A program made the position numbers and the translations under genes. 64,000 nucleotides of DNA from Escherichia coli (GTDB lineage Bacteria > Pseudomonadota > Gammaproteobacteria > Enterobacterales > Enterobacteriaceae). This document shows positions 3,293 to 44,475 of this stretch, in pieces. The stretch is taken from NCBI RefSeq assembly GCF_003334305.1, contig NZ_QOWS01000018.1; one strand, given 5' to 3'. The notes under the pieces were generated by a model. It saw only the letters and a list, made by a program, of their open reading frames with translations, was not told the DNA's origin and did no database searches. Numbering within the stretch: position 1 is the stretch's first letter; the number at the start of each line of letters is the position of its first letter.

Positions 3293-4419
3293 GTTTGAAT
3301 CCACCGTGAAGTCTCTGTCAGGTCATGCACCCCGGAAATCGTCGGTACCAGCAGAGAAATCACACGGTTCCAACGAGCCAGCGGCGCAGTAGTGACATAA
3401 ACAATGTCGTAAGGTTCAAGCTGGAATTCCGTTCCGAGTATCATTGCCGATGCGTCCTTCGCATTCAGCTGATAAATATTGGCGATTTTGCCATTCTGCT
3501 TGTTTTGCGTTGCACGAATAACAAAAATCCCCGTCGCATCAGCGACATCCTGATTCATACCCTCAGCGTTACCCAGCGCTTCCGCCAGGGTCATACCGCT
3601 GCGGTCCATTTTCAGCGTGCTCTGTTTACCCACTTCACCCATCACGAAGACTTTCAGATCATCGTTGCGCGGAATAAATAAAATATCGCCCGGGTGCAGC
3701 AGTTTGTTCTGGCGCAAGTCGCCACGCTGCATCAGCGCATAGAGGTTCACTTTGGTCTTTACGCCATTCTGGGTGAGCACCACGTTGCGCCAGTCTGCAT
3801 CTGCGGTCAGACCGCCCGCGGCGTTAATCGCATCCATGATGGTCAGAGGAATATTGGTAATCGGCTGCTGACCCGATTTGCTGACTTCGCCGGTGACGTA
3901 CGCTTTTTGCGAGCGGAACGCCGCGACGCTGACATCGACTTGCGGGCTTTCAATGACTGAATCCAGACGCGCTGTAATCTCGTTGCGTACCTGGGTAAGT
4001 GTTTTCCCGGCCACTTTCAGGCGACCAATATAGGGGTAGAAAATCGCACCATCGGCGTTAACCCAGTTGCCGGTATCACTGGCGCTACGGTATTGCCCTG
4101 CGGGGGTGGTTAGTTCCGGGTGATCCCAGACCGTAACCATCAACACATCCCCAATGCCGATACGATATTCATAGTTTGCGATTTGCTGCTCCAGCTCCGG
4201 GTTAGCCTGCGACATAATCGGTTTGGCGCGCAACTGATCAATCAATCCTGGCGTGACGGGATAGATATTGACCATTTTGTCCAGGTCATACTGATTGTCA
4301 GGTAGTTCAATGACATCCTTGTTACTGGTCGATAAATTCTGACCAGGAACAAGGGTACATGCTGTCAAAGACAGAACAGCCAATGTCAGTACCGAAAACT
4401 TAAAAATGTTCTTTTTCAT
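3280..4419 (-). CDS. gfcE: Wza-like outer-membrane polysaccharide export lipoprotein GfcE
   Basis: Lipoprotein signal (LTAC) and Wza-family sequence; start taken at MKKNIF (379 aa). Confidence 0.85.
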
Positions 4420-4464
4420 TGGTTTATATTTATCAGTCAATGTAATGTTATGAATTACGTCAGG

Positions 4465-6561
4465 TTATTGTCCAACCGGTACTTCTCGCTCTGCCGTCAT
4501 TGGATAGAGCTGGTATTTGCGTGACAGCATTTGTCCACCATCACGCGTCAATGGTGTCCACGAAACCACCGCGCGGTTGCGGTTAGGTCCAATGGTCATC
4601 AAGTCGAATGGAATCGAGATATAAAAACCTTTACTAAAGCCGCCTTCGCCGTAGTCATCTTTAGATACGTTACTGATTGCCGCCCATACCCCTACCGCCA
4701 CGCCGCTGTCAAAGCGTTTGGCGACGTCGATCGTTGCGCCTTTATCTTTTGCCAGATATTGCCCAACGCTAAGTTTCATCAGTACGCCATTGAGCGTCGG
4801 CGGGTTCCAGTAAGCCGTCACGAAACCTGTTGGCGTGGAATAATCGGTGAAACGCATCATGTTGTCCCAGTCACGTTGCTTCACGTAGTTAACGTCCACA
4901 CCCAGCGCCCAGCTGGCATCTAGCGGGCGATAAAGCAGCTCGGAACCGACACCGGCGTACATCGTTTCCAGATAACCGCCATACACCTGGCCATAGAAAC
5001 CATTGCCTAAGTCGGCAAAGTAGTTCGCCTGCAAGTTGTTGAGATAAACGTCATTGCGAACGTAATCACGGATATGCGTGCGCACGCGGGGCAGGGTAGA
5101 GTCCGCGGGCAACAGCGAAGACTTAAACTTGTCGTAGTTGTTGTAAATATTGGTGAAAATACCGCCATCAAGCAGCAGGTGGTCGGTAAACCAGTAGCGG
5201 GCACTGGACATCAGCCCCAGCTGGAACATATAGAAATCTTCCGGGCCGCCCAGCGACTGTGAAAGTGTTGGGTTGAAAGAGTAGCTAAAGCGATCTTCAC
5301 GAATACGGTAGCCCCGACCAAAGGCAGAAAGATCTTCTGCTTCAACACGTTGTTGTTGAAGTTGCTCTGATTGACCAGGCGCTGTACCAGCCAGCTGTTT
5401 GCGCAGGCTGGCTACGTCGGTTTCGGTAGTCACCATCGCCATATGCTCGCGCTTTTGCGTCACGCTAATCTTCTCAACGCCTTGCGGCAGGTTATTCACC
5501 AGAATCCGGTTGGCACGATCGACCGCTTCGCGAGAATCACGGTATTTGTATTGTTGACCAGACATATACAGCGTCTTATCGCGCAGCTGAATTTCCGGTG
5601 CTTCAAAACCTGCGTTGTACTTCAGCGCGGTAAGTTGGTTCGCTACTGTGGTGTACTGCAATCCTTCAGATTCAGGCGCAGGTTGATATGCCGGTTTTGG
5701 CGTATCGCGCAGGGCAGGGCGCAGATCGTTGAAATTGGTCCGTAACGTGAAGCCAAACATCAACGTGTTACCGCGTTCATAACTCAGGTTGAGATCTGCC
5801 CAGCTGGCAGCGCGATAAACTGCGCCGACGTTGAAATGGCTTGCCTGAGGCAGTTTGCCAGCGAAATCATTCTGGTAATTGTTGCCATCGTATTCGAGTT
5901 TCAGACGCAGGGGATTCCACGGCGTTTGATACTCAATGCCGCCAAAGATGGAAGCCGGGCCACGAAAGATATCGCTAAAGCTGATATCGCCCGCATCGTG
6001 AGACTCTGCGCGATGACAATATTTATCGCTCACCCGGCAAAACGGGTTGGTAATATTGCCCGCATTACCGGCGTAGCCCCATGCCATCCCGAGGGTGAAA
6101 TCAAATGGCCCCGCTTGCTTGCTGGCCACCAGATACTCACCGTCAAACAGACCCGTACCAGCAATATCACGTTTACCAAACGCCACTTGCGGTAGCCAGT
6201 AACCTTCTTCCCACAGGCGAAGTTTAAAATCGAATGATTTGTCTTTGTATGACTGATCGCCGCTGAAATCTTCCCACTGGCTATATTTGCGTGTGCGCAC
6301 ATCCGTATAACGAATGGTGCCTTCCAGCCATGGGAACAGCGCCACGGAGGTGGAGTAGAACCGGTATTGATCGTTATCCCGGTAGTTGACGCTGAATTCA
6401 CCTTCCGGTGCGATGCGCGCATTTGGCATCTGCAACAATCCTGTGCCGCCAAAGTCTGATTGCGACGAACCCAGCGGATCCGGGTAGGTTAATACTTCAG
6501 CATGACAGGCACTGGAGACGGCAATGGCCAGGCAGCTTAAAAGATAAGAATTCTTCTTCAT
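4465..6561 (-). CDS. gfcD: Group 4 capsule outer-membrane protein GfcD
   Basis: 698-aa ORF with signal peptide; synteny within the gfc operon. Confidence 0.85.
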
Positions 6562-8801: not shown

Positions 8802-9014
8802 TTAAGAGAGATAAACATTTGCCGCTGTTGGTCCTCGCAGGCCATTTACGCGGCAAAATTCCACACGTAATCCTGGTATAAGCACTTCTGCGTCGCGGGG
8901 AGTGAATGCGGAAATATGGACCTGAACTTCTTTACGACCGTCGGAGGGGATAATGAATCCTTTGCCGCTTTTGCGATCAAAGGTTTTGACAATTCCTGTC
9001 ATTTTACGGGACAA
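8802..9014 (-). CDS. cspH: Cold-shock-like protein CspH
   Basis: 70-aa cold-shock domain protein. Confidence 0.9.
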
Positions 9015-9299
9015 ACAAATTCCTTACTGAAAATACTGCGCTGCACTATACGGGGTTAATAAAATAAAGCCAGCGATATTTAAGACCGCCGGACGGCTAA
9101 AATAAAATTTGCTTAATCTCAATTATCATGCGTTAATAGCTGCGTCGGTTTGAAAGACAGACAGCATACAAAGTAGTTTACTAAAGCAGTTCTCATTATC
9201 AGGCATTATCCCCTTCTTTTGAGTCTCTCTCCTGAACACTAAGTAGTTTCTGTATTAAAGCCCTGTTTGCCGAAAGGCCCAAAATGAAGGAAGTAAAAT

Positions 9300-9512
9300 A
9301 TGTCTAATAAAATGACTGGTTTAGTAAAATGGTTTAACGCAGATAAAGGTTTTGGCTTTATCACTCCTGATGATGGCAGCAAAGACGTTTTCGTCCATTT
9401 CACTGCCATCCAGAGCAATGAATTCCGCACGCTGAACGAAAATCAGAAAGTTGAATTTTCTATTGAGCAGGGGCAACGTGGCCCCGCGGCAGCGAACGTT
9501 GTTACGCTCTAA
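9300..9512 (+). CDS. cspG: Cold-shock protein CspG
   Basis: 70-aa CSD protein ([21 protein letters not shown]...); strong RBS upstream. Confidence 0.9.
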
Positions 9513-9711
9513 GGTTGCCGTTATTACTCAACATCTCCATTTCCGCTGTCCATGTTGTCATGGTTCACAGTACCGTACATCGGCATTCGATGTGACGGAG
9601 CGAAACCCTTTGGGCGCTAAGTGTATTTTTTGTAAATCGACGATGATCACCTTTGATAACGTCGCGCTGCAAATATGCACGGACCATGCGCCGCTGGATT
9701 TCACAAAATAA
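9451..9711 (+). CDS. Small Cys-rich (zinc-ribbon-like) protein in the cspG-gnsA interval; true start uncertain, probably downstream of the cspG stop
   Basis: ORF with CPCC...C...C motif; the track ORF start overlaps cspG so the real start is likely internal or non-ATG. Confidence 0.3.
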
Positions 9712-25499: not shown

Positions 25500-25550
25500 A
25501 TCATTGTTCTCCTGTTCAATGAACCACTTAGATAAGCATAGTCCGAAGAT

Positions 25551-27194
25551 ATGAAGCTGCTAGTGACATACATCAGGTGGAGTACTAAAGAGCAAGACTC
25601 AGGAGACTCCTTAAGACGACAAACAAACCTCATTGATGCTTTCTACTCTAAGCACAAAAACGATTATTACCTTCTTCCTGCTCACAGATACGTTGATAAG
25701 GGTAAATCTGGTTTTCACCAGCAACATAAGAATCAAGGTTCTGACTTCAGACGTATGTTTGAAAATGTTATGTCTGGGGCTATTCCAGAAGGTTCCCTGA
25801 TTGTTGTAGAGAACTTTGACCGCTTCAGTAGGGCTGATATCGACACAGCTATAGATGATGTCAGGCAGATACTGAGGAAGGGAGTCTCTATACTGACTCT
25901 GGGAGATGGTGAACTCTACGACAAGTCAGCATTAACAGACCCTGTGAAGCTGATTAAGCACATCATCATAGCTGAGCGAGCACATCAGGAATCTCTTGTT
26001 AAACAAAAGCGTATAGCTCAGGTCTGGAACCATAAAACACAGCTTGCAAGAGAACTTAAGAAGCCTATGGGTAAGCAAGCCCCCGGATGGTTAGAGCTAT
26101 CAGAAGACGGTTCACACTACATCGTTGATGAAGATAAAGCGTCACTGGTGAATATCATCTATGACAAGCGTCTTTCTGGTATGTCGATGTTTGCTATCTG
26201 CAAATGGCTAAACGAACAAGGTTACCCGACCATTAATCAGCGTAAGGTCAGAATATCCAAGACTAAGAAACCGGATGGTAACTGGTCAGCTTTAAGCGTT
26301 AAACACATCCTGACTTCACGAAGTGTATTAGGTTACCTTCCCGCTAAGATTTCTACAGAAGACCGTAAAACAGTGTTACGTGAAGAAATTGAAGGGTTCT
26401 ATCCTCAGATTGTCACAGATTCTAAGTTTTACGCTGTACAGCAACTGTTAGAGGAAACAGGGAAGGGGAAAACATCCAGCGGTGACCACTGGTTATACGT
26501 GAACATACTGAAGGGGCTTATCCGTTGTAAGTGTGGGCTTGTAATGACTCCTACAGGGATACGTAAACCCGTTTATCAAGGTACTTACCGTTGCAATGGT
26601 AATAAGGAGTCCCGTTGTAGCTACGGTACAGTGTCCAGAAAGTTACTTGATACACAGCTTTGTAGTCGTCTGTTTAGCAAACTGTCACAGCTACACGATG
26701 AAGCTACCGATACAGCTAAATTAGATGAACTACAAAGAAGATTAAACACCGTTGATGGTGAACTGGAAAAACTCACTGAGACGCTGATACAGCTTCCTAA
26801 CATCACTCAGATTCAAGAAGCACTACGGGTTAAACAGGAAGAAAAAGATGAACTGATAGTTCAGTTATCACGAGAAAAGGCGAGGGTAAAATCTGTATCA
26901 AGCTTGGATTTAAGCGGTCTTGATATGGAGTCTGTAGAGGGGAGAACTGAAGCCCAGATTATCATTAAGCGTCTGGTGAAAGAGATTGTTGTTTCTGGTA
27001 ATGAAAAGCTGGTGGATATATATCTTCACAATGGAAATATGATTCGTGGTTTCCCTCTTGATGGTAAAGATGACCACACCTTAACGCTTGAAGAAGCAAC
27101 CGATGAGATGCAGTCACTAGATGATATGCTTATTTTTGGTGAACCAGTAACAAGGATTTATCCTGCTGGTGATATGGAAGAGGTGGACGCTTAG
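25551..27194 (+). CDS. Large serine recombinase (integrase candidate)
   Basis: 547 aa; N-terminal resolvase-type catalytic motif YIRWSTKEQ (catalytic Ser), Cys-rich zinc-ribbon region (CKCG...CNGNKESRC) and coiled-coil segment typical of large serine recombinases; gene abuts the junction. Confidence 0.85.
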
Positions 27195-27979
27195 TATTTT
27201 TTATTAGGGTTCACTGAGTACTTTTTAAGCTTTGAAGCTACTCGACCAGCGTTACTATTAGCATTGGTGACGTTGGTTTTTTCAGCTTCTGTTAAGTCTG
27301 AATAGTCCAGCTTCCAAGCCTTATTACACTTAATCTGAGCATCGAGAATATCATTTCTGATAGCTGGAGCGTAACCGGATACATCGCTAATACTCATTAG
27401 CTCTTTGCACGATAGCATAGGCGCGTTATTGCGTTCAGTGGTCACGTTACCTGCATTCTTCTTACTGGTCACACCACCATCATTCGTAGTCGCGGCTTTT
27501 CCAGTTGCAGCCGAGATATCAGTCTGCCCCACAACAGCTTTGAAGTTAATTTCCTGAAAAGTTAGTTGGATTCTTAATCCGTTTGAAATTCCAACATCTT
27601 TAGAGGCTTTAAAACTTGTGATAATGGAATCATCAATTTTAATTCCGTCTTTACAGATGACAGAAATAATCTGCTTCTGGTCACGCCAGTTTTCCAGAGT
27701 GTCAATGAAGTTCTCTACTAATTGACCCTGACGAGTTAATAGTAAGCTTCCTTCATAACCAACTACAACGACACCACTGATAGTGATTGTTCTGGGTGCT
27801 CTTTGAACATTATCTGTGACGGTTTGCCCTGATTGCATGTTCTGTGTAGTCACCTGCATAGGGCTATCAAATTCCATATTTTCAGTTGCTGATAAGGTTA
27901 AGAAGGCATCTACATTATCTCTTAAGTGGAAGTAAACGCCATCTTTGCCACTGTAGCGGATTTGATTGCTAAAAATCAT
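27191..27979 (-). CDS. Hypothetical protein, possibly distal-tail (Dit)-like phage tail component
   Basis: Follows the tape-measure-like gene in the canonical order; start taken at the second Met (MIFSNQ), which has an AAGGAG RBS; homology not verified. Confidence 0.35.
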
Positions 27980-28059
27980 TAAATTCTCCTTTGATTTCAA
28001 AGGCTTAGTGTATTTTAATCATTTTTAACCAAGCCTTTGATATATAAGTATTTTCTCTG

Positions 28060-28128
28060 TTAAGCGTGAGCTACGTAAATTCTATTTTTCAGTGCGGGTA
28101 TTAACTTTGCTTTATTCACGTAGAACAC
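28060..28128. repeat. Direct repeat copy A (69 bp, internal dyad GCTACGT...ACGTAGC) upstream of the Dit-like gene
   Basis: ttaagcgtgagctacgtaaattctatttttcagtgcgggtattaac... about 88 percent identical to copy B. Confidence 0.75.
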
Positions 28129-28135
28129 CGTTAAA

Positions 28136-30304
28136 TCAATCATCTTCTGGGAATGATGAACTTAATAACGTAGCTTCTGCATATTGGTCGTAGATATTAC
28201 TGCTAAAGGTCATAAAGCTGGTTTCATCTGGTTTAATGGCAACTTCACCACCAAGTGAAACTTTCACAGGCTCCTGAATACGCTTACTTAAAGCAGAGAT
28301 TTCATCCCTCAGACCCTGAATATCTGCACTCGTTAATGCTGAATCTTGCTTAATGTTGTTTAATTCTGGATGATTGAATCTTGCAATATTCATTGTGGCA
28401 TTGTTAAACAATTCACCCATTGAACTAAAAATTCTACTCCATCCTTCGTTAATCACATTCGGTTTATTAGGGTCACCAGAATACACAGGATTAAAGTCAC
28501 TACCCACACCTACCCCAGATGGATGCATATTAGCGTTTTTGACTACTTCCTGATTCATAAAATCCAGTGCTTTCTTCAATGCATATAAACCAAGAGTGAC
28601 ACCTCTGATTTGTGGAATCATTGAAGCTAATGCTAACGCTGTTTCATAACCGTCATCAGCATAACCAATTGCAAGAGCACTACCTACACCACCAGCTACA
28701 CCTTTCAGTTTTCCACCACCTTTACCAGTAGCTACCTGACCAGCCACCTGATTAGCTCTTGTACCTAACGTTGTGATTGCTCTTGTCAGGTTCATAACCC
28801 CTGTAGTAGCACTGAATAGTGTCTTTGCAGATAACGCTATAGCAAGACCTTTGACGAAGTTGATAAATCCATCACCGACTTCATCAAGTAGCTTTCGCTT
28901 AGTGTCATCAAGGCTGTAATAGGTCTTCTTAATCTGTAGAATCCAGCCTTCAAGGTGATTGTTAAAGATACGGATGTCATCTACACCAGCTTTAAGCATG
29001 TCGATAAGTCCACCGATAGCATCACCAGCGATAGAAGAACTCATACCCATTTCACTAAGCAGGTTACTCAGGCTGGATAAGAAGCCATTTAGCTCATCCT
29101 GTGAACCTGAGAAGATTTTCACCATCGTATCATCCCAGTTGTTAGCCAGTTTCCCTAAAGCTGTCTGAGTGCTCTTAGCGACTTCAGCCCAGCCACCCGC
29201 TTTATCAATCATCAAGCCCATCTGTTTAGCGACTTTAGGGAGAGTATCACTACTTAAAATCTTCCCGTCTTTCATCGCTTTATCAAGCTCTGTAGCAGTC
29301 ATACCCAGTGCTTCAGCGAATAGCTTAAATGCACCAGCCATACGGTCACCTAACTGACCACGAAGCTCTTCAGCCTGAATCTTGCCCTTGCTCGCCATCT
29401 GCTCAAATGCTTTCAAAATGCCGTTTAGCTCATCGTTAGAAAGCCCCATTAAGCGACTCATAGCCGTTGCATTACCAAATAGCTCCTGTGTCTGTTCCTG
29501 TGACATAGAACCCTGAGCACCTGCTGCAAACTTAGCGTAGCTTGATAGCCCTTCAGAGATATTAAGACCTGTCTTGTCTGCTAAATTTCGAATAAATACC
29601 TCAGCTTCAGATGCTTTATCACCAAGTACAAACTTAGCGGCTCTCTGTGCGGAATCTCGTTTAAGACCTGCATTCATGATGGCCTTGTAAGCGTTAAGAG
29701 CACCCATCACAGAGTAAAATGCACCAGATAACTTGATTGCATTGCTTGCAAGATTATTAAATGCGTCGCTTGTATTGTTAATGCTGGTGGATGTATGACC
29801 TTTAGCTTTAGCAATTGCTTCTCTGACTGAAGCATTTAACTGAGTCAGCTTCTCATTGAATTTTGAAGAATCCATTGACCCAGCTTTAGCAGATAGCCCG
29901 TAAAACTGAGATTTGATGTATTTCTGCAAAATAGGGTCAAAGCCTTTTAGCTTAGACATATTAGCTGAGTAAGCCGCTGTGATTGCTCTGTTGCCGCTAA
30001 TTCGTGGCTGTCTTGGTTGTCTAAGTGGCTTTAAAGTGTCATCAATTTCCGTTTTAATCTTAAACGCTCTAGTGTTTTTAAGACGCTGCTCAATCTTGGA
30101 AACAGTTTTATCGACATTCTTTTCCATTAGTTTGAGAGAATCATTTAAAGGCGTAGGGTTAACTCTGAATGCCTTATTTAGTCGTTTCTCAATTCTTGAT
30201 GCGATTTGCATCGTTTGTTTCTCGGCTTTTTCCAAGCCTTTTAAAACTTTCTGAGAGCTAAAACTTAGCTCAATCAAAAAATCATCAACTTTAAATTGTG
30301 CCAT
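28136..30304 (-). CDS. Tape-measure-like protein (phage tail length tape measure family candidate)
   Basis: 722 aa; coiled-coil N-terminus, central region resembling the tape-measure core (...AEELRGQLGDRMAGAFKLFAEALGMTATELDKAMKDG...), Gly-rich hydrophobic segments. Confidence 0.55.
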   Translation of the reverse strand: MAQFKVDDFLIELSFSSQKVLKGLEKAEKQTMQIASRIEKRLNKAFRVNPTPLNDSLKLMEKNVDKTVSKIEQRLKNTRAFKIKTEIDDTLKPLRQPRQPRISGNRAITAAYSANMSKLKGFDPILQKYIKSQFYGLSAKAGSMDSSKFNEKLTQLNASVREAIAKAKGHTSTSINNTSDAFNNLASNAIKLSGAFYSVMGALNAYKAIMNAGLKRDSAQRAAKFVLGDKASEAEVFIRNLADKTGLNISEGLSSYAKFAAGAQGSMSQEQTQELFGNATAMSRLMGLSNDELNGILKAFEQMASKGKIQAEELRGQLGDRMAGAFKLFAEALGMTATELDKAMKDGKILSSDTLPKVAKQMGLMIDKAGGWAEVAKSTQTALGKLANNWDDTMVKIFSGSQDELNGFLSSLSNLLSEMGMSSSIAGDAIGGLIDMLKAGVDDIRIFNNHLEGWILQIKKTYYSLDDTKRKLLDEVGDGFINFVKGLAIALSAKTLFSATTGVMNLTRAITTLGTRANQVAGQVATGKGGGKLKGVAGGVGSALAIGYADDGYETALALASMIPQIRGVTLGLYALKKALDFMNQEVVKNANMHPSGVGVGSDFNPVYSGDPNKPNVINEGWSRIFSSMGELFNNATMNIARFNHPELNNIKQDSALTSADIQGLRDEISALSKRIQEPVKVSLGGEVAIKPDETSFMTFSSNIYDQYAEATLLSSSFPEDD

Positions 30305-30322
30305 TGTTCATATTTCACCTCT

Positions 30323-30390
30323 TTAAGCGTGAGCTACGTAAATTCTATTTTTCAGTGTGGGTATTAGCTTTACAGATTTCACGTAGCACA
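30323..30390. repeat. Direct repeat copy B upstream of the tape-measure-like gene
   Basis: ttaagcgtgagctacgtaaattctatttttcagtgtgggtattagc...cacgtagcacac. Confidence 0.75.
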
Positions 30391-30505
30391 CATAGGATTC
30401 GATAGAAGACTATCTCATATACAAAAAAGGAGAGTTACCGATGTCACTCGATAATCTCTCCCGTAGATTTTTACCCAACCAATTCTATTAGAAGCTAATC
30501 TCAAA

Positions 30506-30721
30506 TTAATGGTAAACGTAAGAATACATCCCATCATCACCTAAAATCTGTGCGTCACATGGTAATTTATCTAAGCACCATGAAGGAATCTTACGTACCT
30601 TTGGTTTATGTGAGGTGATAACTTGATGCTGATTTTTAATTCGTAGCTTTGGTTTAGTCTGAAGCTTTAAGTTCTCACAAACAGACTTAATAAGTTCATA
30701 GCGTTCTGTTAAATCAATCAT
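30506..30721 (-). CDS. Hypothetical small basic protein
   Basis: 71-aa ORF co-oriented with neighbouring element genes; no recognisable motif. Confidence 0.4.
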   Translation of the reverse strand: MIDLTERYELIKSVCENLKLQTKPKLRIKNQHQVITSHKPKVRKIPSWCLDKLPCDAQILGDDGMYSYVYH

Positions 30722-30744
30722 TCACCACCTCTTTTAATTCATAG

Positions 30745-31455
30745 TTAAAGTGCCTTGCTATATTTCTGAGAAATCTTCACTAACTGCTCAATATCAGCCT
30801 GCATAGCAATCTTCTTCTGCGTTTCATATGCAGAAATAAGCTCTTTCATAGCCTGAAGCTCTCTTGAGAGATACAACTTAACATTTTCAAGTTGCTTGTT
30901 ACGTGATGCCAAGATGTTCTGTCTGGCAAGTTCAGCGAGTTCTTCATCGCTCTTATTAGTCGTGTAAATAAACTGACCAGCACCCCTTGAAGCTTTAACC
31001 ATCTTCACAATTCGATATCCAGCAGGAAGACTACTAATCACGGCTGCGACGTTTTCTTGAAAAGTACCAAAACCATCATTGTCTTCGTATGTGAAGTAAA
31101 CATACGGCTTCTGTGACAATTCATCCTGAATCTCAAATTCTGACGGCTCAATAGCTGATTGCATCAGGGTAACTTTACTGTAAGCATCATCTAGTTTAAT
31201 ACGCTGTGCTTTTAGCAGTGGGTAATATTCACGCTCAAGCTCAAGTAATGCTTCAGTTTTGCATACATCAGGCATCTCTTGAGGCTCAGGAGACACAAAG
31301 ATGATTTCCTTTGGTGACATTCGGATTTCTTGCTCAAGCTTAATTCTTTCATCGTGTTCTTTACGCTGAATAGCGATAGCTGGATGTTCAGTCTGTGGCG
31401 ACCAGTCACCGAAGCTATCAATCACTTTGCCATTAATGTAAATATCATTTGTCAT
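30745..31455 (-). CDS. Hypothetical protein with C-terminal coiled coil
   Basis: 236-aa ORF with a good RBS (aagagga); no recognisable domain. Confidence 0.5.
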   Translation of the reverse strand: MTNDIYINGKVIDSFGDWSPQTEHPAIAIQRKEHDERIKLEQEIRMSPKEIIFVSPEPQEMPDVCKTEALLELEREYYPLLKAQRIKLDDAYSKVTLMQSAIEPSEFEIQDELSQKPYVYFTYEDNDGFGTFQENVAAVISSLPAGYRIVKMVKASRGAGQFIYTTNKSDEELAELARQNILASRNKQLENVKLYLSRELQAMKELISAYETQKKIAMQADIEQLVKISQKYSKAL

Positions 31456-31933
31456 TGTTTTTTCCTCTTCTAAGCTAAAGTATTTCAGTTTTTAAAAAGC
31501 ACACCTGACAGCCTATCTAAACTTAGAAGAGACTTAAAAGGCGGTTTGCCAAGTATGCTTTTTAAAAGCTGAAAAAGCCCTAGATAACTAAAACGCTATA
31601 AAGGGCTAAGGTGAAGAAATTAAAACATCTAAAGGATTCAATAACGAATGAACAAAGACTTTTCGAGATAGCCTCTCAGGTTGTATAAGAGGCCATGTAG
31701 CGAAAAGCATTGCACCTTTCAGAATGTTCGGTATAGAACATACCTCACCAACTCAGAATATCCATCCATCGGATTATTGAAATAAATAAGAGAGAAATTC
31801 TCTCTATAATTAAAATTATGTCATGCTTAAGGTTATTTGTCAACAGCTTTTTAACAGATTGGTAACATTTATACTTTAATAGATGCACCTGCAATCATAC
31901 CAATCAACACAAAACAGAGAATCACCAATTCCA

Positions 31934-32257
31934 TTAATGCACCACCTTCGAATCCGTAACCAGAATATTATCGCTGTACAAAATTGCTATAGCCGCCTTG
32001 AGATATTTTTCAGGGCTAACGCTGTATTTGTTCGTTTGCTCGACAACCAATCTTTTCATGTTGCTGTCTTTAATTGGTAGCATCATTCGAGGCTCGTTAA
32101 ACTCCACCGACTGAATAAAGTCAGAGATGCTTTCCGCATTATCAGTCATTAACTCTAACAACTTATCAAAGTCAATGCTAACACCTACATCAGTGAAAGC
32201 CTGAATCATCATGGCGGTGTCGGTATCAATAAAAATCTGTAATTCGTAATTGTTCAT
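31934..32257 (-). CDS. Hypothetical acidic protein
   Basis: Start taken at the ATG (MNNYELQIF) preceded by AAGGAG; the track ORF begins at an upstream TTG. Confidence 0.45.
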   Translation of the reverse strand: MNNYELQIFIDTDTAMMIQAFTDVGVSIDFDKLLELMTDNAESISDFIQSVEFNEPRMMLPIKDSNMKRLVVEQTNKYSVSPEKYLKAAIAILYSDNILVTDSKVVH

Positions 32258-32412
32258 TTTTAAAATCTCCTTTTTACCAGACCTCCTCAATCGCTCTGTA
32301 ACGAGCTAAACAGTCTTTTTCAGGGGTAGCCTGTACAGTGGTATTACCCACCCTAAAATAAGATAGTTTTTTGCGTCAGAATGCGATTGAGAGCGTCTGA
32401 GAAGCTGTTTTT

Positions 32413-32700
32413 CTAATTTCTCTTAAAGTCTCGGACTTGCATAAGATTTTTTGGTCTGGTATCGGCTCTGTTACCATTTCGATGGATAATTTGCTTGTTG
32501 GATTGATAGCCATGATAAAGAAACCAGACAACATATTTCACGTAGAAAGTATATCGGCCTATATTAAATGTTTTGTTGCCGTAGTCGTCGGTGTTTATCG
32601 TGACTGACTCTCCATCAGACCAGCACAGGGAATCACTGGATTCATCATAGATAAGGTGTTCTGCAAAATATCTTCTAACATCTTCATTCCAAGGTTTCAT
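32413..32700 (-). CDS. HNH endonuclease-like protein
   Basis: 95 aa; C-terminal IIHRNGNRADTRPKNL resembles the HNH core (I-H-x-N/D-G-N-x-x-D-N-R-x-x-N-L) of phage HNH nucleases. Confidence 0.5.
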   Translation of the reverse strand: MKPWNEDVRRYFAEHLIYDESSDSLCWSDGESVTINTDDYGNKTFNIGRYTFYVKYVVWFLYHGYQSNKQIIHRNGNRADTRPKNLMQVRDFKRN

Positions 32701-32912
32701 AAAACCTCCTCACCCCAATAACCTAATTCAATCTTGTGACGCTCAAACCATTCCGGTTTAACTGCTGTTTTCAGTACTTCATTTGGGCCAATGGCTTTAA
32801 TGAAAATATCTTTTGAGTTATGGATGTCACCGAATCCGTTTCCTTCAATCAGGAGGTCGGAGATGTAGCGAATCATTTTATCCGTGTGGTATTCAAAGGT
32901 AACGCATAGCAT
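32697..32912 (-). CDS. Hypothetical protein
   Basis: 71-aa ORF with start/stop overlap to both neighbours (operon-like coupling). Confidence 0.4.
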   Translation of the reverse strand: MLCVTFEYHTDKMIRYISDLLIEGNGFGDIHNSKDIFIKAIGPNEVLKTAVKPEWFERHKIELGYWGEEVL

Positions 32913-33193
32913 TAAACCTCCAGAGACAGCTTGTGAATCTTAAGACTCAATAGACGGGCAATATCAATTTTAAAGCCGTTAAGTCCCTTCAAAGTATCTA
33001 AAGCGTCCTGAGTAATTCGGATGTGTTTACGACCTTTAGAGACTGGATATTTAAGTAAATCCGACTCAGTAACCTCTTTAGCAATTGCAAGCTGCATAAC
33101 AGTCTGATGAGGTAAGTTAGTAGCTCGTTTAATTCTGGCAAGCTCGTTAAAAGCTTCCTCTGAAATGCGGGTTAAAGTGTGTTTGTTTTTCAT
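32912..33193 (-). CDS. Putative ribbon-helix-helix DNA-binding protein
   Basis: N-terminal HTLTRISEEAFNELARIKRATNL pattern (beta-strand then helix) typical of Arc/MetJ/CopG-type regulators. Confidence 0.4.
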   Translation of the reverse strand: MKNKHTLTRISEEAFNELARIKRATNLPHQTVMQLAIAKEVTESDLLKYPVSKGRKHIRITQDALDTLKGLNGFKIDIARLLSLKIHKLSLEV

Positions 33194-33194
33194 T

Positions 33195-33749
33195 TTAAAA
33201 TTCCTCTGTAACTAAATACGGGTCAAATTCAAAGTCTGGTTCACTGGTTGTAAGGCTGATATTTCCAACTTCCGCATGATGATTAATTGTCTCAATAACT
33301 TTCATGCAAATAGTGGCTAAGTTAGCGCAATATTTATCACTTGGTAATTCGTAGCTAAGTCTGGTTGCTTGTCTTTGAAGATGGCTCGTCACTGTGCTTG
33401 AACTAATCTCATCAAGACTTCGCAGTAAATAAAAAACCTTCCGGTGATAATTATCTCTTCCAAGACTGCGACAAGTACCGATAATTACATCTTCAATTCG
33501 TGGCGGTAATTGCTCGTAAGAATCAAAGCCCATCAAGAAAGTTTTTAAAGTATTCTCTTTTTCTTTGCGTGCTGGCATAAATCTGTCTCGTGGCGTAATG
33601 CTACGAATGACCGCTTCAATGTTCTTACGTTCGGATTTGCTAAAGGTTGGGACTTCGTAGCTGGTGGGGGTGTCTGTGTGGCTGTAACCGTTGTGTCTGT
33701 TGCGTTCTCTTGATGCCTGAAGCATCGCTCTAAATTCTCTGTCGTTCAT
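33195..33749 (-). CDS. Hypothetical protein (first gene of the leftward operon)
   Basis: 184-aa ORF with no recognisable domain. Confidence 0.45.
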   Translation of the reverse strand: MNDREFRAMLQASRERNRHNGYSHTDTPTSYEVPTFSKSERKNIEAVIRSITPRDRFMPARKEKENTLKTFLMGFDSYEQLPPRIEDVIIGTCRSLGRDNYHRKVFYLLRSLDEISSSTVTSHLQRQATRLSYELPSDKYCANLATICMKVIETINHHAEVGNISLTTSEPDFEFDPYLVTEEF

Positions 33750-33850
33750 TCATAAGCTAGTCCTTATAATTGTTAATTCTCTGTTAACTTATATATACAA
33801 TACTAGCATTTTCAAAGACTAATGTCAAGCATTTTTTAACATTTCATTAA

Positions 33851-33866
33851 CATCTGTGGTATAATG
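33851..33866 (+). promoter_or_regulatory. Candidate extended -10 promoter (TGgTATAAT), rightward
   Basis: ctgTGgTATAATgg in the divergent region between the 184-aa gene and the small membrane ORF. Confidence 0.45.
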
Positions 33867-33992
33867 GTTCTATGGGGAGAGTAAAATATAAAGGCGTGGC
33901 TATGAGGTTTATTCGATAGGGGTTGGTACAAGCCCAACCAACCGAATCAACTATGTATGTCACATGGTATTGCATTGCACACAGGAAATTTA

Positions 33993-34169
33993 ATGGTAAA
34001 TCTCCCTCCTGAACTGGGGTCACCTGATGTATGGGCTGGTGGAGGTATCGGGCTGATTGCAGGTCTGTTACTCCGCTACGTCCTTGTCAGAGTGCTTGTT
34101 GTGTTCCGATTGTTCGGTCGTACATGGACGCTTGACCTTAAGGATAATGAGCACACAGAACCCCGTTAA
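33993..34169 (+). CDS. Small single-pass membrane protein (58 aa from the RBS-preceded ATG)
   Basis: Hydrophobic stretch GGGIGLIAGLLLRYVLVRVLVVF; AGGAAA RBS before the MVNLPPEL start. Confidence 0.35.
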   Translation: MVNLPPELGSPDVWAGGGIGLIAGLLLRYVLVRVLVVFRLFGRTWTLDLKDNEHTEPR

Positions 34170-34211
34170 GCTCCCTTCAAATCCCCCTGTACGAGATGGC
34201 ATAGGGGTGTC

Positions 34212-34250
34212 TTTAGCATTTTGTGCTATCTATTAAAAAATAACTTGACA
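34212..34250. promoter_or_regulatory. Operator-like dyad TAGCA-N5-TGCTA followed by ACTTGACA (module 1)
   Basis: tttagcattttgtgcta ... acttgacagaa. Confidence 0.45.
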
Positions 34251-34289
34251 GAACCGGAAAGCTGTATCTATCAGGTATTCACCTCTCTG

Positions 34290-34460
34290 ACAGTAACTTC
34301 TAAAAGTTCTTATTTTTCAATGAGTTGTAATCACCCATATATAGAGAACTGACAAGTCTCTTCACAATTAACTCTGTAACCTTAACAGTGATTTCTAAAA
34401 ATGCTTATTTTTCAATAAGTTGTAATTAGCCATATATAGAGAACTGACAAGTCTCTTCAC
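34290..34460. repeat. Two tandem copies of a 76-bp direct repeat (period 95 bp) in ORF-free DNA
   Basis: acagtaacttctaaaagttcttatttttcaatgagttgtaatcacccatatatagagaactgacaagtctcttcac versus the second copy, about 88 percent identical. Confidence 0.8.
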
Positions 34461-34777
34461 GGAGAACTTCCTGGACTCACTAAGATACAAGGCGATAACC
34501 CCAGAAAGGGAGAGCCACCTTCTAATTGGTATTGTTATGAGGATGCTTCATCCGAATCATCTACCAATCCCTAAACCGACTTCTTAAACAATCTTTACAG
34601 ACCCCGTTCACCAGTCTCAATATTTTTATTTCTCGCTCTTCGTTTGTTGCTCGTTTCTATTATTGAGGGGGTTTGAAAAACCTCTGTAAAATAACCCTTC
34701 CAGTAAAAAGCGAATAACCCCAGAGAGGGGGAATCGCCTCTTTAACATTCTCATAATCAGTGCTCTATATGAGAATT

Positions 34778-35446
34778 TCAGCCCAACCTTTGAACAATCT
34801 TGTAAGTGGTGCTTAGAGGCATTCTTAGCGATTCTGCGATGCTCTTGACGGATTGCCCTTGGCCATGCAGTTTAATCAGCCTGTCAAGCGTCTGTGCATC
34901 GTGTATATGAGGTCTTCCACGTAAACCACCCCTGTTAACCACGGCAAGTAAAAGCATTGTGTCGCCACAATAGATTGTTTGTGTAACTTCAACCTTCGGT
35001 TTACGGGGTGTGTTCCTGTATATCAAAACGCAACTTGCAAACGGTGAACGCACTACAACACCTTTCTTCCCTGCTGGTGGAAGGTATTTGACTGCTCGGT
35101 GTAACGTTCGAATCTCATGCAGAAAGGGGTTTGTATATACACACCGAAGCCAGTAAGTTGTCTTTGACCTGTGCGGAACCAGACATACACACACATCAGC
35201 TTCATGGGATTTTAGGAGGAACCTTTCAGCCATGCTAAACGGCGGGTTAACGAAGACCCGTTCACCAACCCATGATTGATTGTGAATATCATCGGTGAAC
35301 CGTGGCAACAATGCGTCATGCTCAGTTGCAGCACCATCCATCGAAAAACCAAATTCACGGTGTAGGTTACGAAATAAACGATACGGTGTACGCCAGTCAT
35401 CAGAACCACCATGATAACGACCGACATTGATTATTGGATGTGACAC
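34778..35446 (-). CDS. Dam-family (phage-type) DNA N6-adenine methyltransferase with a C-terminal HTH extension; GTG start
   Basis: N-terminal DWRTP and catalytic NPPF motifs of the phage Dam family; C-terminal about 45 aa (GRPHIHDAQTLDRLIKLHGQGQSVKSIAESLRMPLSTTYKIVQRLG) resemble the GRP-linker plus HTH of resolvase/invertase proteins. Confidence 0.7.
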   Translation of the reverse strand: MSHPIINVGRYHGGSDDWRTPYRLFRNLHREFGFSMDGAATEHDALLPRFTDDIHNQSWVGERVFVNPPFSMAERFLLKSHEADVCVCLVPHRSKTTYWLRCVYTNPFLHEIRTLHRAVKYLPPAGKKGVVVRSPFASCVLIYRNTPRKPKVEVTQTIYCGDTMLLLAVVNRGGLRGRPHIHDAQTLDRLIKLHGQGQSVKSIAESLRMPLSTTYKIVQRLG

Positions 35447-35485
35447 AAGCGAAGCGCCCCTCTTAGTATATTTCTTAATCGTCTC

Positions 35486-35546
35486 TTTAGCATTTAGTGC
35501 TTTTTGTTAAGTTTAGCACTTTTTGCTAAAGACAAAACACTTGACA
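35486..35546. promoter_or_regulatory. Operator-like dyads (TTTAGCA-N6-TGCTAAA and a second half-degenerate copy) followed by ACTTGACA (module 2), upstream of the methyltransferase gene
   Basis: tttagcatttagtgct and tttagcactttttgctaaa, then acttgacaaaa. Confidence 0.5.
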
Positions 35547-36020
35547 AAATGGTAAGATTGTTCACATGACCTTACTTAACAGATTCTTAAGAGCTTTGAA
35601 ACGAACTGTTTAACAAGGTCACTACCTCTGGTCTTATCGTTCCCTCTCTTCTTGGTAGTTCTGTTAAGTATCTTTTCAGGTATCTCTTACAGTCACTGTT
35701 AAGATAGAACCTACCTTCGGTTTCATGGTTCTCTTCCTCCCGTTAAATATCCCTTCACAGTCAGACTAAATAACACCTCTGTAGTTTCTTGGTAGAATCT
35801 TTCAAGGTAACTTAACTCTGAGTTTATGAAGTTGACCTTAGTCAATGTTTGTGAAGGTGTTACAGAGCATGTTCTCTAGGTCTGTGTAGCTCACTAAGCG
35901 AGAGAGGGGATATGTGACCATAGGGGAACCCCTCCTGTTAAAAGTTTCTTGATGTTATCATCACAATATGTATAATCACCAACTGTACAGACACCTTAAC
36001 GGTTTCTCTACACCTCACTA

Positions 36021-36089
36021 TGGCTAGGTAGGGTATGGTTTAGCTTGGTACGGCTAGGTTAGGTCTGGTTTGGTTAGGTATGGGTGGAT
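36021..36089. repeat. Degenerate G/T-rich short tandem repeat (GGYTAGGT-like units)
   Basis: tggctaggtagggtatggtttagcttggtacggctaggttaggtctggtttggttaggtatgggtgg. Confidence 0.6.
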
Positions 36090-36120
36090 TGTCGTAGCCA
36101 CGTTAAAAATCGACTTATAG

Positions 36121-36145
36121 GGACTCTTTCGGGAGTCCTTTTTAG
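36121..36145 (+). terminator. Intrinsic terminator, plus orientation, with no upstream plus-strand ORF
   Basis: ggactc-tttcgg-gagtcc stem-loop followed by ttttt. Confidence 0.6.
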
Positions 36146-36347
36146 TTTGTATAAAATCTGTACAGGAGTTATCAGGCTTCTAAAATTTTTATAAAAAATA
36201 ATCAGACCTCTTCTAAGCCTCTTCAACCAAATCTTTCGAAAATATCTGACAGATGTCTGTAGCTGCTAAGTACCCGTCACACCAGCTATGTGACCCCCTT
36301 GGCAAAAAAGCCAAATATCAGCTACATCCATGTAACTATTCAGTAAC

Positions 36348-36899
36348 TTATTTAGCAAGTCTGTAATAAGTTGCTCTAGAGATTCCTAACTCTTCCTGAA
36401 TCTGCAACCTCGTCTTACCTTGTGAAATAAGCGTCTGTACAGCCTCTGAAGAAGCCTTTACAGGCCTCCCCATATGTACCCCTTCAGCTTTAGCACGTTC
36501 AATACCAGCCTTTCTACGCTCTGCTATCAAGCTTCTTTCAAGCTGTGCCAACGTTGACATAATGCCTAACATTGCTTCACCCATAGCGCTTGATAAGTCA
36601 AACCCTTCTCTAAGGCTGATAACTGTCACACCTTTAGCCTGTAGCGCTTTAACCGTTGATAACACATCAATTGTGTCACGTCCAAGACGGTCTACAGCTA
36701 CCACAACTACGGTGTCACCTTCTCGTGCATAAGCTAACAAACTACTGAAACCGTTTCTTAAAGAAGCTTTGACAGAACCACTGACAGCTTCATCAGTGAA
36801 CCATTTAGCAATGTTGTACCCTGCCTCTTCAATTTGCATTTGCTGGTTAGTGATGGATTGGTCATCTGTACTCACCCTGCAATATCCAAGTATCGCCAT
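36348..36899 (-). CDS. Small serine recombinase (resolvase/DNA-invertase family)
   Basis: 183 aa; N-terminal catalytic motif GYCRVSTDDQ, resolvase core, C-terminal GRP linker plus HTH. Confidence 0.85.
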   Translation of the reverse strand: MAILGYCRVSTDDQSITNQQMQIEEAGYNIAKWFTDEAVSGSVKASLRNGFSSLLAYAREGDTVVVVAVDRLGRDTIDVLSTVKALQAKGVTVISLREGFDLSSAMGEAMLGIMSTLAQLERSLIAERRKAGIERAKAEGVHMGRPVKASSEAVQTLISQGKTRLQIQEELGISRATYYRLAK

Positions 36900-36912
36900 A
36901 CATCCCCCTTAG

Positions 36913-37040
36913 AAGTCTCAAAAGTTAGTCTCATAAGTTTAGCTGTCTCATAATCCAAAAACAACCTTTTGAGACTACTTGAGGGTGCATTCTACCGTTA
37001 CGTTGAAAGTGTCTCAAAAGGAAGTCCTTTTAAGACTGGT
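36913..37040. promoter_or_regulatory. Iteron-like array of GTCTCAWAAG motifs (at least four direct, two inverted) immediately upstream of the small recombinase gene
   Basis: gtctcaaaag, gtctcataag, gtctcataat, inverted ttttgagact, gtctcaaaag, taagact within about 125 bp. Confidence 0.6.
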
Positions 37041-37416
37041 TATGAAGGAGCTATGAAGATTTTAGGAGGGTAACTATAACCATCACTTTCTAACTTTCAC
37101 GTAGGAAATCGTTAAGTTTCTTGATAGTTACACCATGTGACCAACTATCTATATATCGTTATATAGCCCTGTATATAACACTTTTCTAGGAGTCGAGAGA
37201 GGGACGACTAACACGATACAGTTTACCCTGAAAAGAGACTTCACAGATTCTCTATATATTTCAATAAGTTAGGCTAAAAAGAGACTATACCGATACTGTA
37301 TAGAATCTGTGTAGAATTGCTTAGATACTTGGAAAAATGCCTTTAAATTGAATAGGTACTAACCTGTTTATGTCCTGTTATTAACAGGTAGTTGAATGTA
37401 CGTGTTTAGCTATGTA

Positions 37417-37438
37417 AAAGCACCAGAACTTTAGCCAT
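37417..37438 (-). other. attR core candidate (AAAGCAC) plus the displaced native wrbA start codon and first five codons
   Basis: Minus strand reads ATG GCT AAA GTT CTG GTG C..., the recalled native wrbA 5' end, now separated from the gene body by the element. Confidence 0.6.
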
Positions 37439-37810
37439 TTCTAACCACTCCTCGTGTTATCTCTATTCCGTAGCGATTCGCTACCACTTATTTAAAGATA
37501 AGACGTCCTTTTCAGAGTGCAAATTTCACAACCACTTATTTGATTTATAACAACTTTCACAAGCACGTAATTTTGTCGCAAAATGACACATTTTTATCTC
37601 ATCGCGTTTTTTTAATCATAAGAGCGGCTTATGGATAATTATTGGAGATGATATCTATTCTCGCTAAGAAGCTGTTGCAGGATATTACCAAACGCGGGTC
37701 TGCCCGCGTCAGTTCACTAAGCTTAGTCCCACGTAGCGAAAATATGGCAGCCGCCATACGCCGCGTTAATTCTATGCAATATGATGTCTATACCCAGACG
37801 GAGGTCAGTA

Positions 37811-41726: not shown

Positions 41727-43567
<1,841 letters not shown>

Positions 43568-43797
43568 ATCCTTTTCAGCCGCGTAATGGCTTGTTTGCAA
43601 AGCGGATGCCAGTTTTTAAAAAGTGAATGTTATTAATGTGTTAACATTGTGTTGTCTAAAATATCTGGTAAAAAGTGGACTAAACGGTCAAAACAGTTGC
43701 ACATAAAACATGCATCTGTGCGCGATGAGAGTGCAGAAGGTCGAGGCCGGGCGGGGGTTTTGCTATCCTGTTGCCAATCTACAAGAGGGGAGAGCGC

Positions 43798-44436
43798 ATG
43801 ACGCAAGGCGCAGTGAAAACAACGGGTAAACGTTCGCGCGCAGTAAGCGCGAAGAAAAAAGCGATTCTTAGCGCAGCACTGGACACTTTTTCACAATTCG
43901 GTTTTCACGGCACAAGGCTGGAGCAGATCGCAGAGTTGGCGGGTGTTTCAAAAACCAATCTGCTGTATTACTTTCCGTCAAAAGAGGCGCTGTATATTGC
44001 CGTGCTGCGGCAGATTCTCGATATCTGGCTGGCACCGTTAAAAGCGTTTCGTGAAGATTTCGCTCCGCTGGCGGCGATAAAAGAGTACATCCGTCTGAAG
44101 CTGGAAGTCTCCCGCGATTATCCGCAGGCTTCGCGCCTGTTCTGTATGGAGATGCTGGCAGGCGCGCCGCTGTTAATGGATGAACTGACGGGCGATTTGA
44201 AGGCATTAATTGATGAGAAATCGGCGCTGATTGCCGGTTGGGTCAAAAGCGGCAAACTCGCGCCGATTGATCCGCAGCATTTGATTTTCATGATTTGGGC
44301 TTCCACTCAACATTACGCCGATTTCGCCCCTCAGGTGGAGGCGGTGACAGGCGCGACGTTGCGCGATGAGATATTTTTCAATCAAACGGTTGAAAACGTG
44401 CAGCGGATTATTATTGAGGGGATTCGACCACGTTAA
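43798..44436 (+). CDS. rutR: TetR-family repressor RutR
   Basis: Start taken at MTQGAVKTTGKRSRAV (212 aa); TetR HTH. Confidence 0.9.
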   Translation: MTQGAVKTTGKRSRAVSAKKKAILSAALDTFSQFGFHGTRLEQIAELAGVSKTNLLYYFPSKEALYIAVLRQILDIWLAPLKAFREDFAPLAAIKEYIRLKLEVSRDYPQASRLFCMEMLAGAPLLMDELTGDLKALIDEKSALIAGWVKSGKLAPIDPQHLIFMIWASTQHYADFAPQVEAVTGATLRDEIFFNQTVENVQRIIIEGIRPR

Positions 44437-44440
44437 AGAT

Positions 44441-44468
44441 GCCGGAGGAGGTTGTAACATCCTCCGGC
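44441..44468. terminator. Hairpin terminator between convergent rutR and putA
   Basis: gccggaggagg-ttgtaac-atcctccggc stem-loop. Confidence 0.6.
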
Positions 44469-44475
44469 TACCTGT

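Follow-up and report, generated by a model that had tools for sequence, protein, structure and literature searches.

The repeat-bearing 600 bp at 34170-34777 are the best-conserved non-coding part of an integrative island in Escherichia coli. We interpret them as the left, element-specific half of a non-coding control region that works as DNA and not as a structured RNA gene, in an island that is most likely a satellite of the Felix O1-like virulent phages; we put the probability of this reading at about one half. Rather than an RNA gene, the region is probably where a phage satellite not described before is controlled and meets its helper. The observations behind this are the anatomy of the region, its conservation among relatives and its homology to phage DNA. 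All positions refer to the 64,000-nucleotide stretch of contig NZ_QOWS01000018.1 that was analysed (the window).

The island lies between wrbA and ymdF and was delimited by its drop in G+C content (0.36-0.44, compared with 0.50-0.57 outside) and by the annotation of the strain A7 locus. The strain A7 chromosome matches the queried window at 100% identity over the query. The island is 11.9 kb in size, and at its right edge chromosome identity is back at 37417 while similarity within the family stops near 37390. It contains the following features:

25500-37416 (left end approximate): the whole integrative island
25551-27194: large serine recombinase gene
27191-28000: gene for a Dit-like (distal tail) protein, Pfam Dit_like
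28136-30304: gene for a 722-aa tape measure protein, Pfam TMP_3
33195-33749: gene for a 184-aa protein
36348-36899: small serine recombinase gene (invertase-like)

The rest of the island comprises genes for several small unknown proteins, an HNH remnant and about 3 kb of non-coding DNA. Insertions into the island include a methyltransferase gene, HNH/AP2 genes and, in the relative L002, IS elements. Genes for head, portal, terminase, sheath and replication proteins were not recognised among the island genes, and this includes any replication initiator, primase or helicase. A 236-aa product labelled as a transposase has no family match, and the label was rejected. The tape measure gene is bracketed by two 69-nt direct repeats (28060-28128 and 30323-30391, 88% identical), each located just upstream of a minus-strand gene start, and these may be matched promoters or regulatory sites. 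A short core common to the 69-nt and the 76-nt repeats had been proposed in the first-pass annotation, and the likeness proves to be weak (local score of 36, compared with 25.6 +/- 4.3 for shuffles and a shuffle maximum of 39; z about 2.4). In addition, 21-nt inverted repeats (35660-35680 and 37227-37247, 90% complementary) bracket the small serine recombinase gene and 1.5 kb. An invertible segment between them was considered and rejected, as the inverted variant is absent among the relatives examined.

The same island, 11-12 kb long, was also found at tonB/yciI and inside yecE in other strains, which brings the number of chromosomal sites to at least three, and metagenomic contigs of 11.33 kb correspond to the entire island. 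The repeat region was detected in 419 of 5426 complete E. coli genomes (~8%), at 931 places (median of two and maximum of six per genome), and is also present in E. albertii. Regarding a circular or excised form, the whole-element contigs show no terminal overlap and one contig has short host flanks. The island thus has an integrase, defined ends, several insertion sites and a size (11.3-11.9 kb) that falls within the 7-20 kb range of satellites. It also has the incomplete set of virion and replication genes by which satellites are recognised (only the tape measure and Dit-like proteins), together with helper-matched genes and non-coding sites.

The repeat region is bordered by a small membrane-protein gene on the left and by the methyltransferase gene on the right, with these features from left to right:

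33957-34169, plus strand: ORF for a 70-aa small membrane protein, adjoining the repeat region on the left
34183-34207, plus strand: terminator-like hairpin CCCCCTGTAC...GCATAGGGG followed by T-rich DNA, which ends the 70-aa ORF
34214-34228: operator-like dyad TAGCA-N5-TGCTA
34245-34274, plus strand: promoter-like site P1 (TTGACA, 18 nt, TATCAG)
34290-34365: repeat unit 1 (76 nt, 95-nt period), with an IHF-like site TTTCAATGAGTTG at 34315-34327 and a dyad AGAGAACTGACAAGTCTCT at 34343-34361
34385-34460: repeat unit 2, with the IHF-like site at 34410-34422 and the dyad at 34438-34456
34478-34516: copy 1 of a second motif, CACTAAG and a two-tier hairpin GGC-GATAA-CCC-CAGAAA-GGG-AGA-GCC
34524-34572: 49-nt hairpin insert AATTGGTA...TACCAATCCCT
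34705-34737, minus strand: copy 2 of the second motif, hairpin GCGA...TCGC then UUUUU (34705-34709), -15.3 kcal/mol
34778-35446, minus strand (gene end at 34778): Dam-like N6-adenine methyltransferase gene, an insertion that splits one non-coding block

Changes between relatives at third codon positions indicate that the 70-aa ORF is a real gene, and it is annotated as a hypothetical protein in an O111:H8 strain. Two promoter-like sites lie back to back on its left, one for the leftward operon (33828-33800) and one rightward with an extended -10 (33836-33865). The rightward site precedes the 70-aa gene by a leader of ~90 nt with a hairpin, an arrangement that resembles a small genetic switch or a toxin-like gene. 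Both arms of the hairpin that ends the ORF are retained in relatives, L002 differing in the loop and at one arm position.

The operator-like dyad is nearly invariant in 33 distinct relatives, the pattern used to collect relatives including that stretch. Further copies are found at 35488-35501 and 35514-35528 before a second promoter-like site, and all three dyads precede a promoter-like site. P1 has an A-tract upstream and is conserved in relatives, where the -10 hexamer reads TATCAA. A sigma-70 scan did not list P1 because the last base of its poor -10 hexamer is not T. No DNA-binding regulator was identified in the island. The 184-aa protein, for which a role as small terminase or as a regulator reading the repeats was sought, yields no match to Pfam, PDB or known folds that would assign it a function. 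The model of its predicted structure has a pLDDT of 77, and its homologues in E. coli, Shigella, E. fergusonii and Salmonella (1083 clusters at 90% identity) are all unnamed. It is far more variable than the non-coding block, a pattern that would be expected for an arms-race protein. Distant homologues in other bacteria are encoded in islands of a like kind, with genes for a serine recombinase and a tape measure protein and, in some cases, more tail genes, and the non-coding DNA of these islands is not alignable to that of the island here. One distant relative of the island, integrated in another enterobacterial genome, also near cmoA/cutC (L085), has a tandem repeat with a period of ~41 nt directly 3' of the homologue of the 184-aa gene (8826-8934).

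The two 76-nt units are direct copies with a start-to-start distance of 95 nt, as first described, and are 91% identical rather than about 88%. The pair goes unreported by Tandem Repeats Finder owing to the low copy number of two and the divergence of the 19-nt spacer. Each unit starts with TGACAG or TTAACAG and has TTCAC at its end; in between are TTTCAA-N4-TTG, the dyad AGAGAACTGACAAGTCTCT and a (TA)n run whose length varies. The G+C content of the units is 32%, compared with 40% for the island. In both units the IHF-like site fits 12 of 13 positions of WATCAANNNNTTR, a match that is not significant alone given that chance matches occur 1.4 times per kb in the window. Across the family, the flanking bases of this site are invariant and its most variable column is inside the N4 part. 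The 95-nt period corresponds to about nine helix turns, placing both modules on the same face of the helix. The absence of ORFs of at least 60 aa in 34170-34777 is confirmed, the longest being 43 aa (TTG start, plus strand), followed by 42 aa and 31 aa. A small-protein gene was also considered and rejected, since the sole recurring ORF overlaps the operator and promoter, has a TTG start without a ribosome site and varies in length between copies.

Across 37-39 of the relatives (39 loci, many of them collected by a pattern from 34217-34248, so that identity is inflated for that short stretch), 34200-34400 is 91-95% identical, compared with 75-85% for the adjacent 184-aa gene. Unit 1 hardly varies, the variable part being the 3' third of unit 2. 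About 27 of the 33 distinct relatives carry two units and five carry one hybrid unit, indicating that two copies are usual but dispensable. The 95-nt spacing is preserved in E. albertii. Outside Escherichia, no real match to the repeat unit was found in IMG/VR or in a set of one genome per species, where the other 27 loci are single chance matches.

The density of repeats had initially suggested a structured non-coding RNA, a protein-binding array or a packaging or replication signal. As an RNA gene, the region would produce a P1 transcript some hundreds of nucleotides long, and the two modules in it would act in cis or on other RNAs in trans, transcripts of the helper or the island being possible targets, with the P4 immunity RNA and the put-type antitermination RNAs as models. 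The promoter-like site directly upstream, the lack of an ORF and a conservation above that of the adjacent gene would all suit such a gene, as would the hairpin at the unit end, which is paired in 78% of cells and whose covariation beats 499 of 500 shuffles. However, a control slid by +2 gives essentially the same covariation (0.124 vs 0.127). Folding of 34276-34600 is no better than that of shuffles on either strand (z = +0.57 and -0.11), and Rfam 15 has no match in 33700-37500, be it at the gathering score or at E<=5. An inverted copy able to pair with the units is absent, as is extended complementarity to a Felixounavirus genome. A plus-strand terminator after the repeats was not found, and variants with one unit exist. 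A structured RNA for the 76-nt repeats is thus unsupported, and we consider an RNA gene unlikely. Elsewhere in the window, Rfam matches Ysr251 (antisense RNA, 55536-55729, 188 bits) and the cspA thermoregulator (9144-9566, 163 bits), ordinary chromosomal features unrelated to the repeats. The protein-binding array fits better than an RNA, in the form of a regulatory array that would act at the DNA level. This is suggested by a conservation exceeding that of the adjacent gene, by the helical phase of the units and by their operator-like and promoter-like neighbours.

The second motif, downstream of the repeats, is real: a 26-nt pair (34495-34520 and 34714-34739) is 81% identical. The pattern GCGAWAACCCC...GGG occurs at 34491-34516 and 34710-34737 and, with one indel, reaches over GCGA(A)TAACCCCAGARAGGG. 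The relatives L050 and L066 have a recombinant of the two copies, which supports their homology. The partial third copy that had been suggested at 35889-35915 has only CACTAAG and a purine-rich run in common with the others, a likeness that is not significant alone (shuffle test against the phage region, p about 0.6).

Copy 1 is homologous to a hairpin located ~290 bp before the Felixounavirus terminal repeat (score of 35, compared with 20.4 +/- 2.3; reached by 0 of 300 shuffles). The fold is kept among island and phage variants with a changing outer helix (GGC/GCC, AGC/GCU, GCGA/UCGC, GCCC/GGGC and GCCA/UGGC). Pairing is possible on either strand, with greater stability on the minus strand of the window (-11 to -17 kcal/mol), where the hairpin precedes U-rich sequence. 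Copy 2 has the sequence attributes of a Rho-independent terminator, namely a stable, G+C-rich hairpin and a U run, ~40 nt past the methyltransferase stop codon and on the strand of that gene, and therefore reads as its likely intrinsic terminator. Unlike ordinary terminators of this class, the motif hairpin is two-tiered with a conserved internal loop (AUAA / GAA). In Felixounaviruses, other terminators already shield the motif region to the left and right, and the hairpin may thus do more there than terminate transcription.

The 49-nt insert beside copy 1 is 94-98% identical to sequences of NBEco004, NBEco005 and EC106, and that of the relative L002 is 100% identical to NBEco004. So close a match speaks for contact between island and phage DNA within one cell. 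Depending on the position, the insert is found complete, shortened or not at all in both islands and phages, and most islands and most phages lack it. It thus behaves as a small piece of DNA that moves or recombines, much like a miniature mobile insert. A small hairpin element with the core TTGGTATTGTTACCAA, whose long form has a 26-nt loop insert, is seen at 34524-34572 of the window, in EC106 (L005, 5001-5054 and 5759-5781) and in ZX4221 (L043).

The methyltransferase gene is absent in L002, L004 and most relatives, and there the non-coding blocks on its two sides are contiguous. Without it, the repeat block joins the block that starts at ~35500 to form a single non-coding region of ~1.6-1.8 kb. 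Two features of this right-hand part are relevant to the phage comparison:

35541-35667: second promoter-like site (TGGTAAGAT, extended -10) and phage-homologous segment
36022-36140, plus strand: G/T-rich repeat block, ~78% identical to repeats of the Felixounavirus replication gene cluster

The coding part of the island also points to these phages. The Dit-like protein is 71.6% identical to gp119 of the Felixounavirus garuso, encoded just after the garuso tape measure gene. The island tape measure is 33% identical to that of garuso, and its best full-length matches in the phage collection are Felixounavirus proteins. Felixounaviruses are virulent phages, and a Felix-like integrated element is therefore hard to explain as an ordinary prophage remnant. 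Since some distant relatives carry more tail genes, the island could nevertheless derive from the tail module of a prophage.

The Felixounavirus genome has a non-coding region of ~1.7 kb that includes the direct terminal repeat (591 bp in ZX4221), and many records begin at one same point of this terminal region. Direct terminal repeats have been reported for Felixounaviruses in an announcement (PMC11737134). In the island, 35550-35667 matches DNA inside the terminal repeat in reverse orientation (E about 1e-8 to 1e-11), and 36146-36390 matches phage DNA spanning the right terminal-repeat boundary, also in reverse orientation. Within the G/T-rich block the matching part is 36026-36114, and a strong terminator hairpin follows (36119-36140). 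In garuso, the G/T-rich repeats occur in three places (4396-4481, 5652-5740 and 5776-5820). A promoter-like site is located upstream of the block, which might be an origin of the helper type or an R-loop element.

The island thus holds the hairpin motif, the 49-nt insert, the segment from within the terminal repeat and the DNA spanning its right boundary. However, these segments are rearranged and partly inverted relative to the phage, and the 76-nt repeats are specific to the island, with no counterpart detectable in the Felixounavirus terminal region (shuffle test, p = 0.2). The similarity of P1 to the terminal region is not significant either. The phage terminal region (EC106, L005 4865-6601; ZX4221, L042/L043) has CTGTTAAG / CTTGTTAG / CTATAAAG motifs at 11-bp spacing. 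This array, with 26 YTGTTAR in 1.7 kb within and around the 591-bp repeat, is of a protein-binding type for which we found no described function, and the phased CTGTTAAG array is thin in the island. Felixounavirus early genes (garuso 43000-49000; L074/L075) follow stereotyped leaders (hairpin, CCACTAAAT, CCTAAACTGGAGATTCTAAAATG), which recur about ten times. The units were compared by hand with the Felix early leaders (GGAGATTCTAAAATG) for antisense pairing, an idea rejected because just eight A/U-rich base pairs form.

The proposal of a packaging or replication signal is favoured by these results for the second motif and its adjacent hairpin, which are homologous to DNA beside the Felix O1-like terminal repeat, but not for the rest of the region. 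For replication, the region would be an origin at which the helper replisome starts, with a promoter leading into AT-rich DNA that unwinds readily and includes TA runs and an IHF site. Transcription-primed origins are known from T4 and T7. The low G+C content of the units, their variable (TA)n runs, P1 upstream and an island without replication genes of its own are consistent with this. Against it, origins of the iteron type have three or more repeats of 17-22 bp and an initiator gene, compared with two long repeats and no initiator gene here. One-unit variants again exist, and the stretch homologous to the phage replication-module repeats (36022-36087) is a better candidate elsewhere in the island. 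We therefore regard an origin at the 76-nt repeats as improbable.

Still less probable is a packaging signal for the helper terminase that would mimic a concatemer junction. It draws on the homology of the motif and the 49-nt insert to DNA near the Felixounavirus terminal repeat, and on more terminal-repeat-like segments 1-2 kb rightward. However, the 76-nt repeats, the most conserved part, are those without a phage counterpart, the order of the homologous pieces differs from that in the phage, most islands and most phages do without the insert, and copy 2 of the motif is explained as a terminator. The terminal-repeat boundaries themselves were not found, a fuzzy search with boundary probes giving only a weak 18/24 match at 34736 and the full probes giving nothing. 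Functionless DNA of a decaying prophage, to which the insertions in the island and the mosaic right-hand part might point, is highly improbable given that the block is better conserved than flanking coding DNA, as seen in dozens of copies from various chromosomal sites and also in E. albertii.

Under the preferred reading of a satellite control region, the operator, P1 and the in-phase units are the island-specific and most constrained part, and the hairpin motif and the insert the parts in common with the helper genome end. The operator, P1 and the two modules would assemble a protein-DNA complex that controls rightward non-coding transcription, heading to the helper-like sites, i.e., the DNA resembling the terminal repeat and the G/T-rich block. 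The island would thereby couple its own replication and packaging to helper infection, and the hairpins may insulate the control region from neighbouring transcription. Protein binding, promoter activity and helper dependence are here predictions from sequence. More tentatively, and with the odds slightly against so detailed a picture, the region could be the cis core of an undescribed family of satellites that live on strictly virulent Felix O1-like phages of Escherichia, Shigella and Salmonella. Such satellites would supply a tape measure and a distal tail protein themselves, lack genes for replication and heads, and rely on non-coding DNA copied in part from the helper genome end and the replication-module repeats. 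The two 95-nt modules by P1 would then be a helper-sensing switch.

Known satellites offer partial parallels. P4 has a cos site copied from its helper P2, leader repeats (immunity RNA) and a crr with two 120-bp direct repeats. The island resembles it in having helper-like cis sites and long direct repeats in non-coding DNA beside a promoter. However, the P4 repeats pair with an inverted copy (seqA/seqC with seqB) or hold octamer iterons bound by the alpha protein, whereas the island has no inverted unit copy and no primase-type gene, and so corresponds neither to the RNA immunity nor to the crr of P4.

PLE, a Vibrio cholerae satellite of the virulent myovirus ICP1 (10.1101/2024.04.22.590561), has a non-coding repeat region that serves in cis. 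Both PLE and the island are chromosomal islands with a large serine recombinase and without a full set of virion genes, and PLE depends on its virulent helper for replication and particles. They have no sequence homology, and PLE has its own replication initiator and capsid-remodelling genes, whereas the island, a candidate satellite, has a tape measure and distal tail protein and no recognisable replication protein. The PICMI are minimalist satellites of virulent Vibrionaceae phages (PMC10803314) and, as described, are similarly small islands with reduced gene content, a virulent helper (proposed for the island here) and no capsid-remodelling genes. They differ in hosts, genes and integrase type, and lack tail genes.

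We found no paper linking a satellite to Felix O1-like phages in a literature search. Phages of the Felix O1 type are used in Salmonella typing, biocontrol and therapy and, to our knowledge, are regarded as having no temperate relatives. Among complete E. coli genomes, about 8% have an island with Felix-like tail genes and genome-end sequences. A simple marker for finding this island family is the pair of 76-nt repeats at a spacing of 95 nt, and the block with these repeats, being its best-conserved one, is the natural place to search for the signals that would link it to a helper. Interference with Felix O1-type phages, travel in their particles and transfer of host DNA are all conceivable for such an island.
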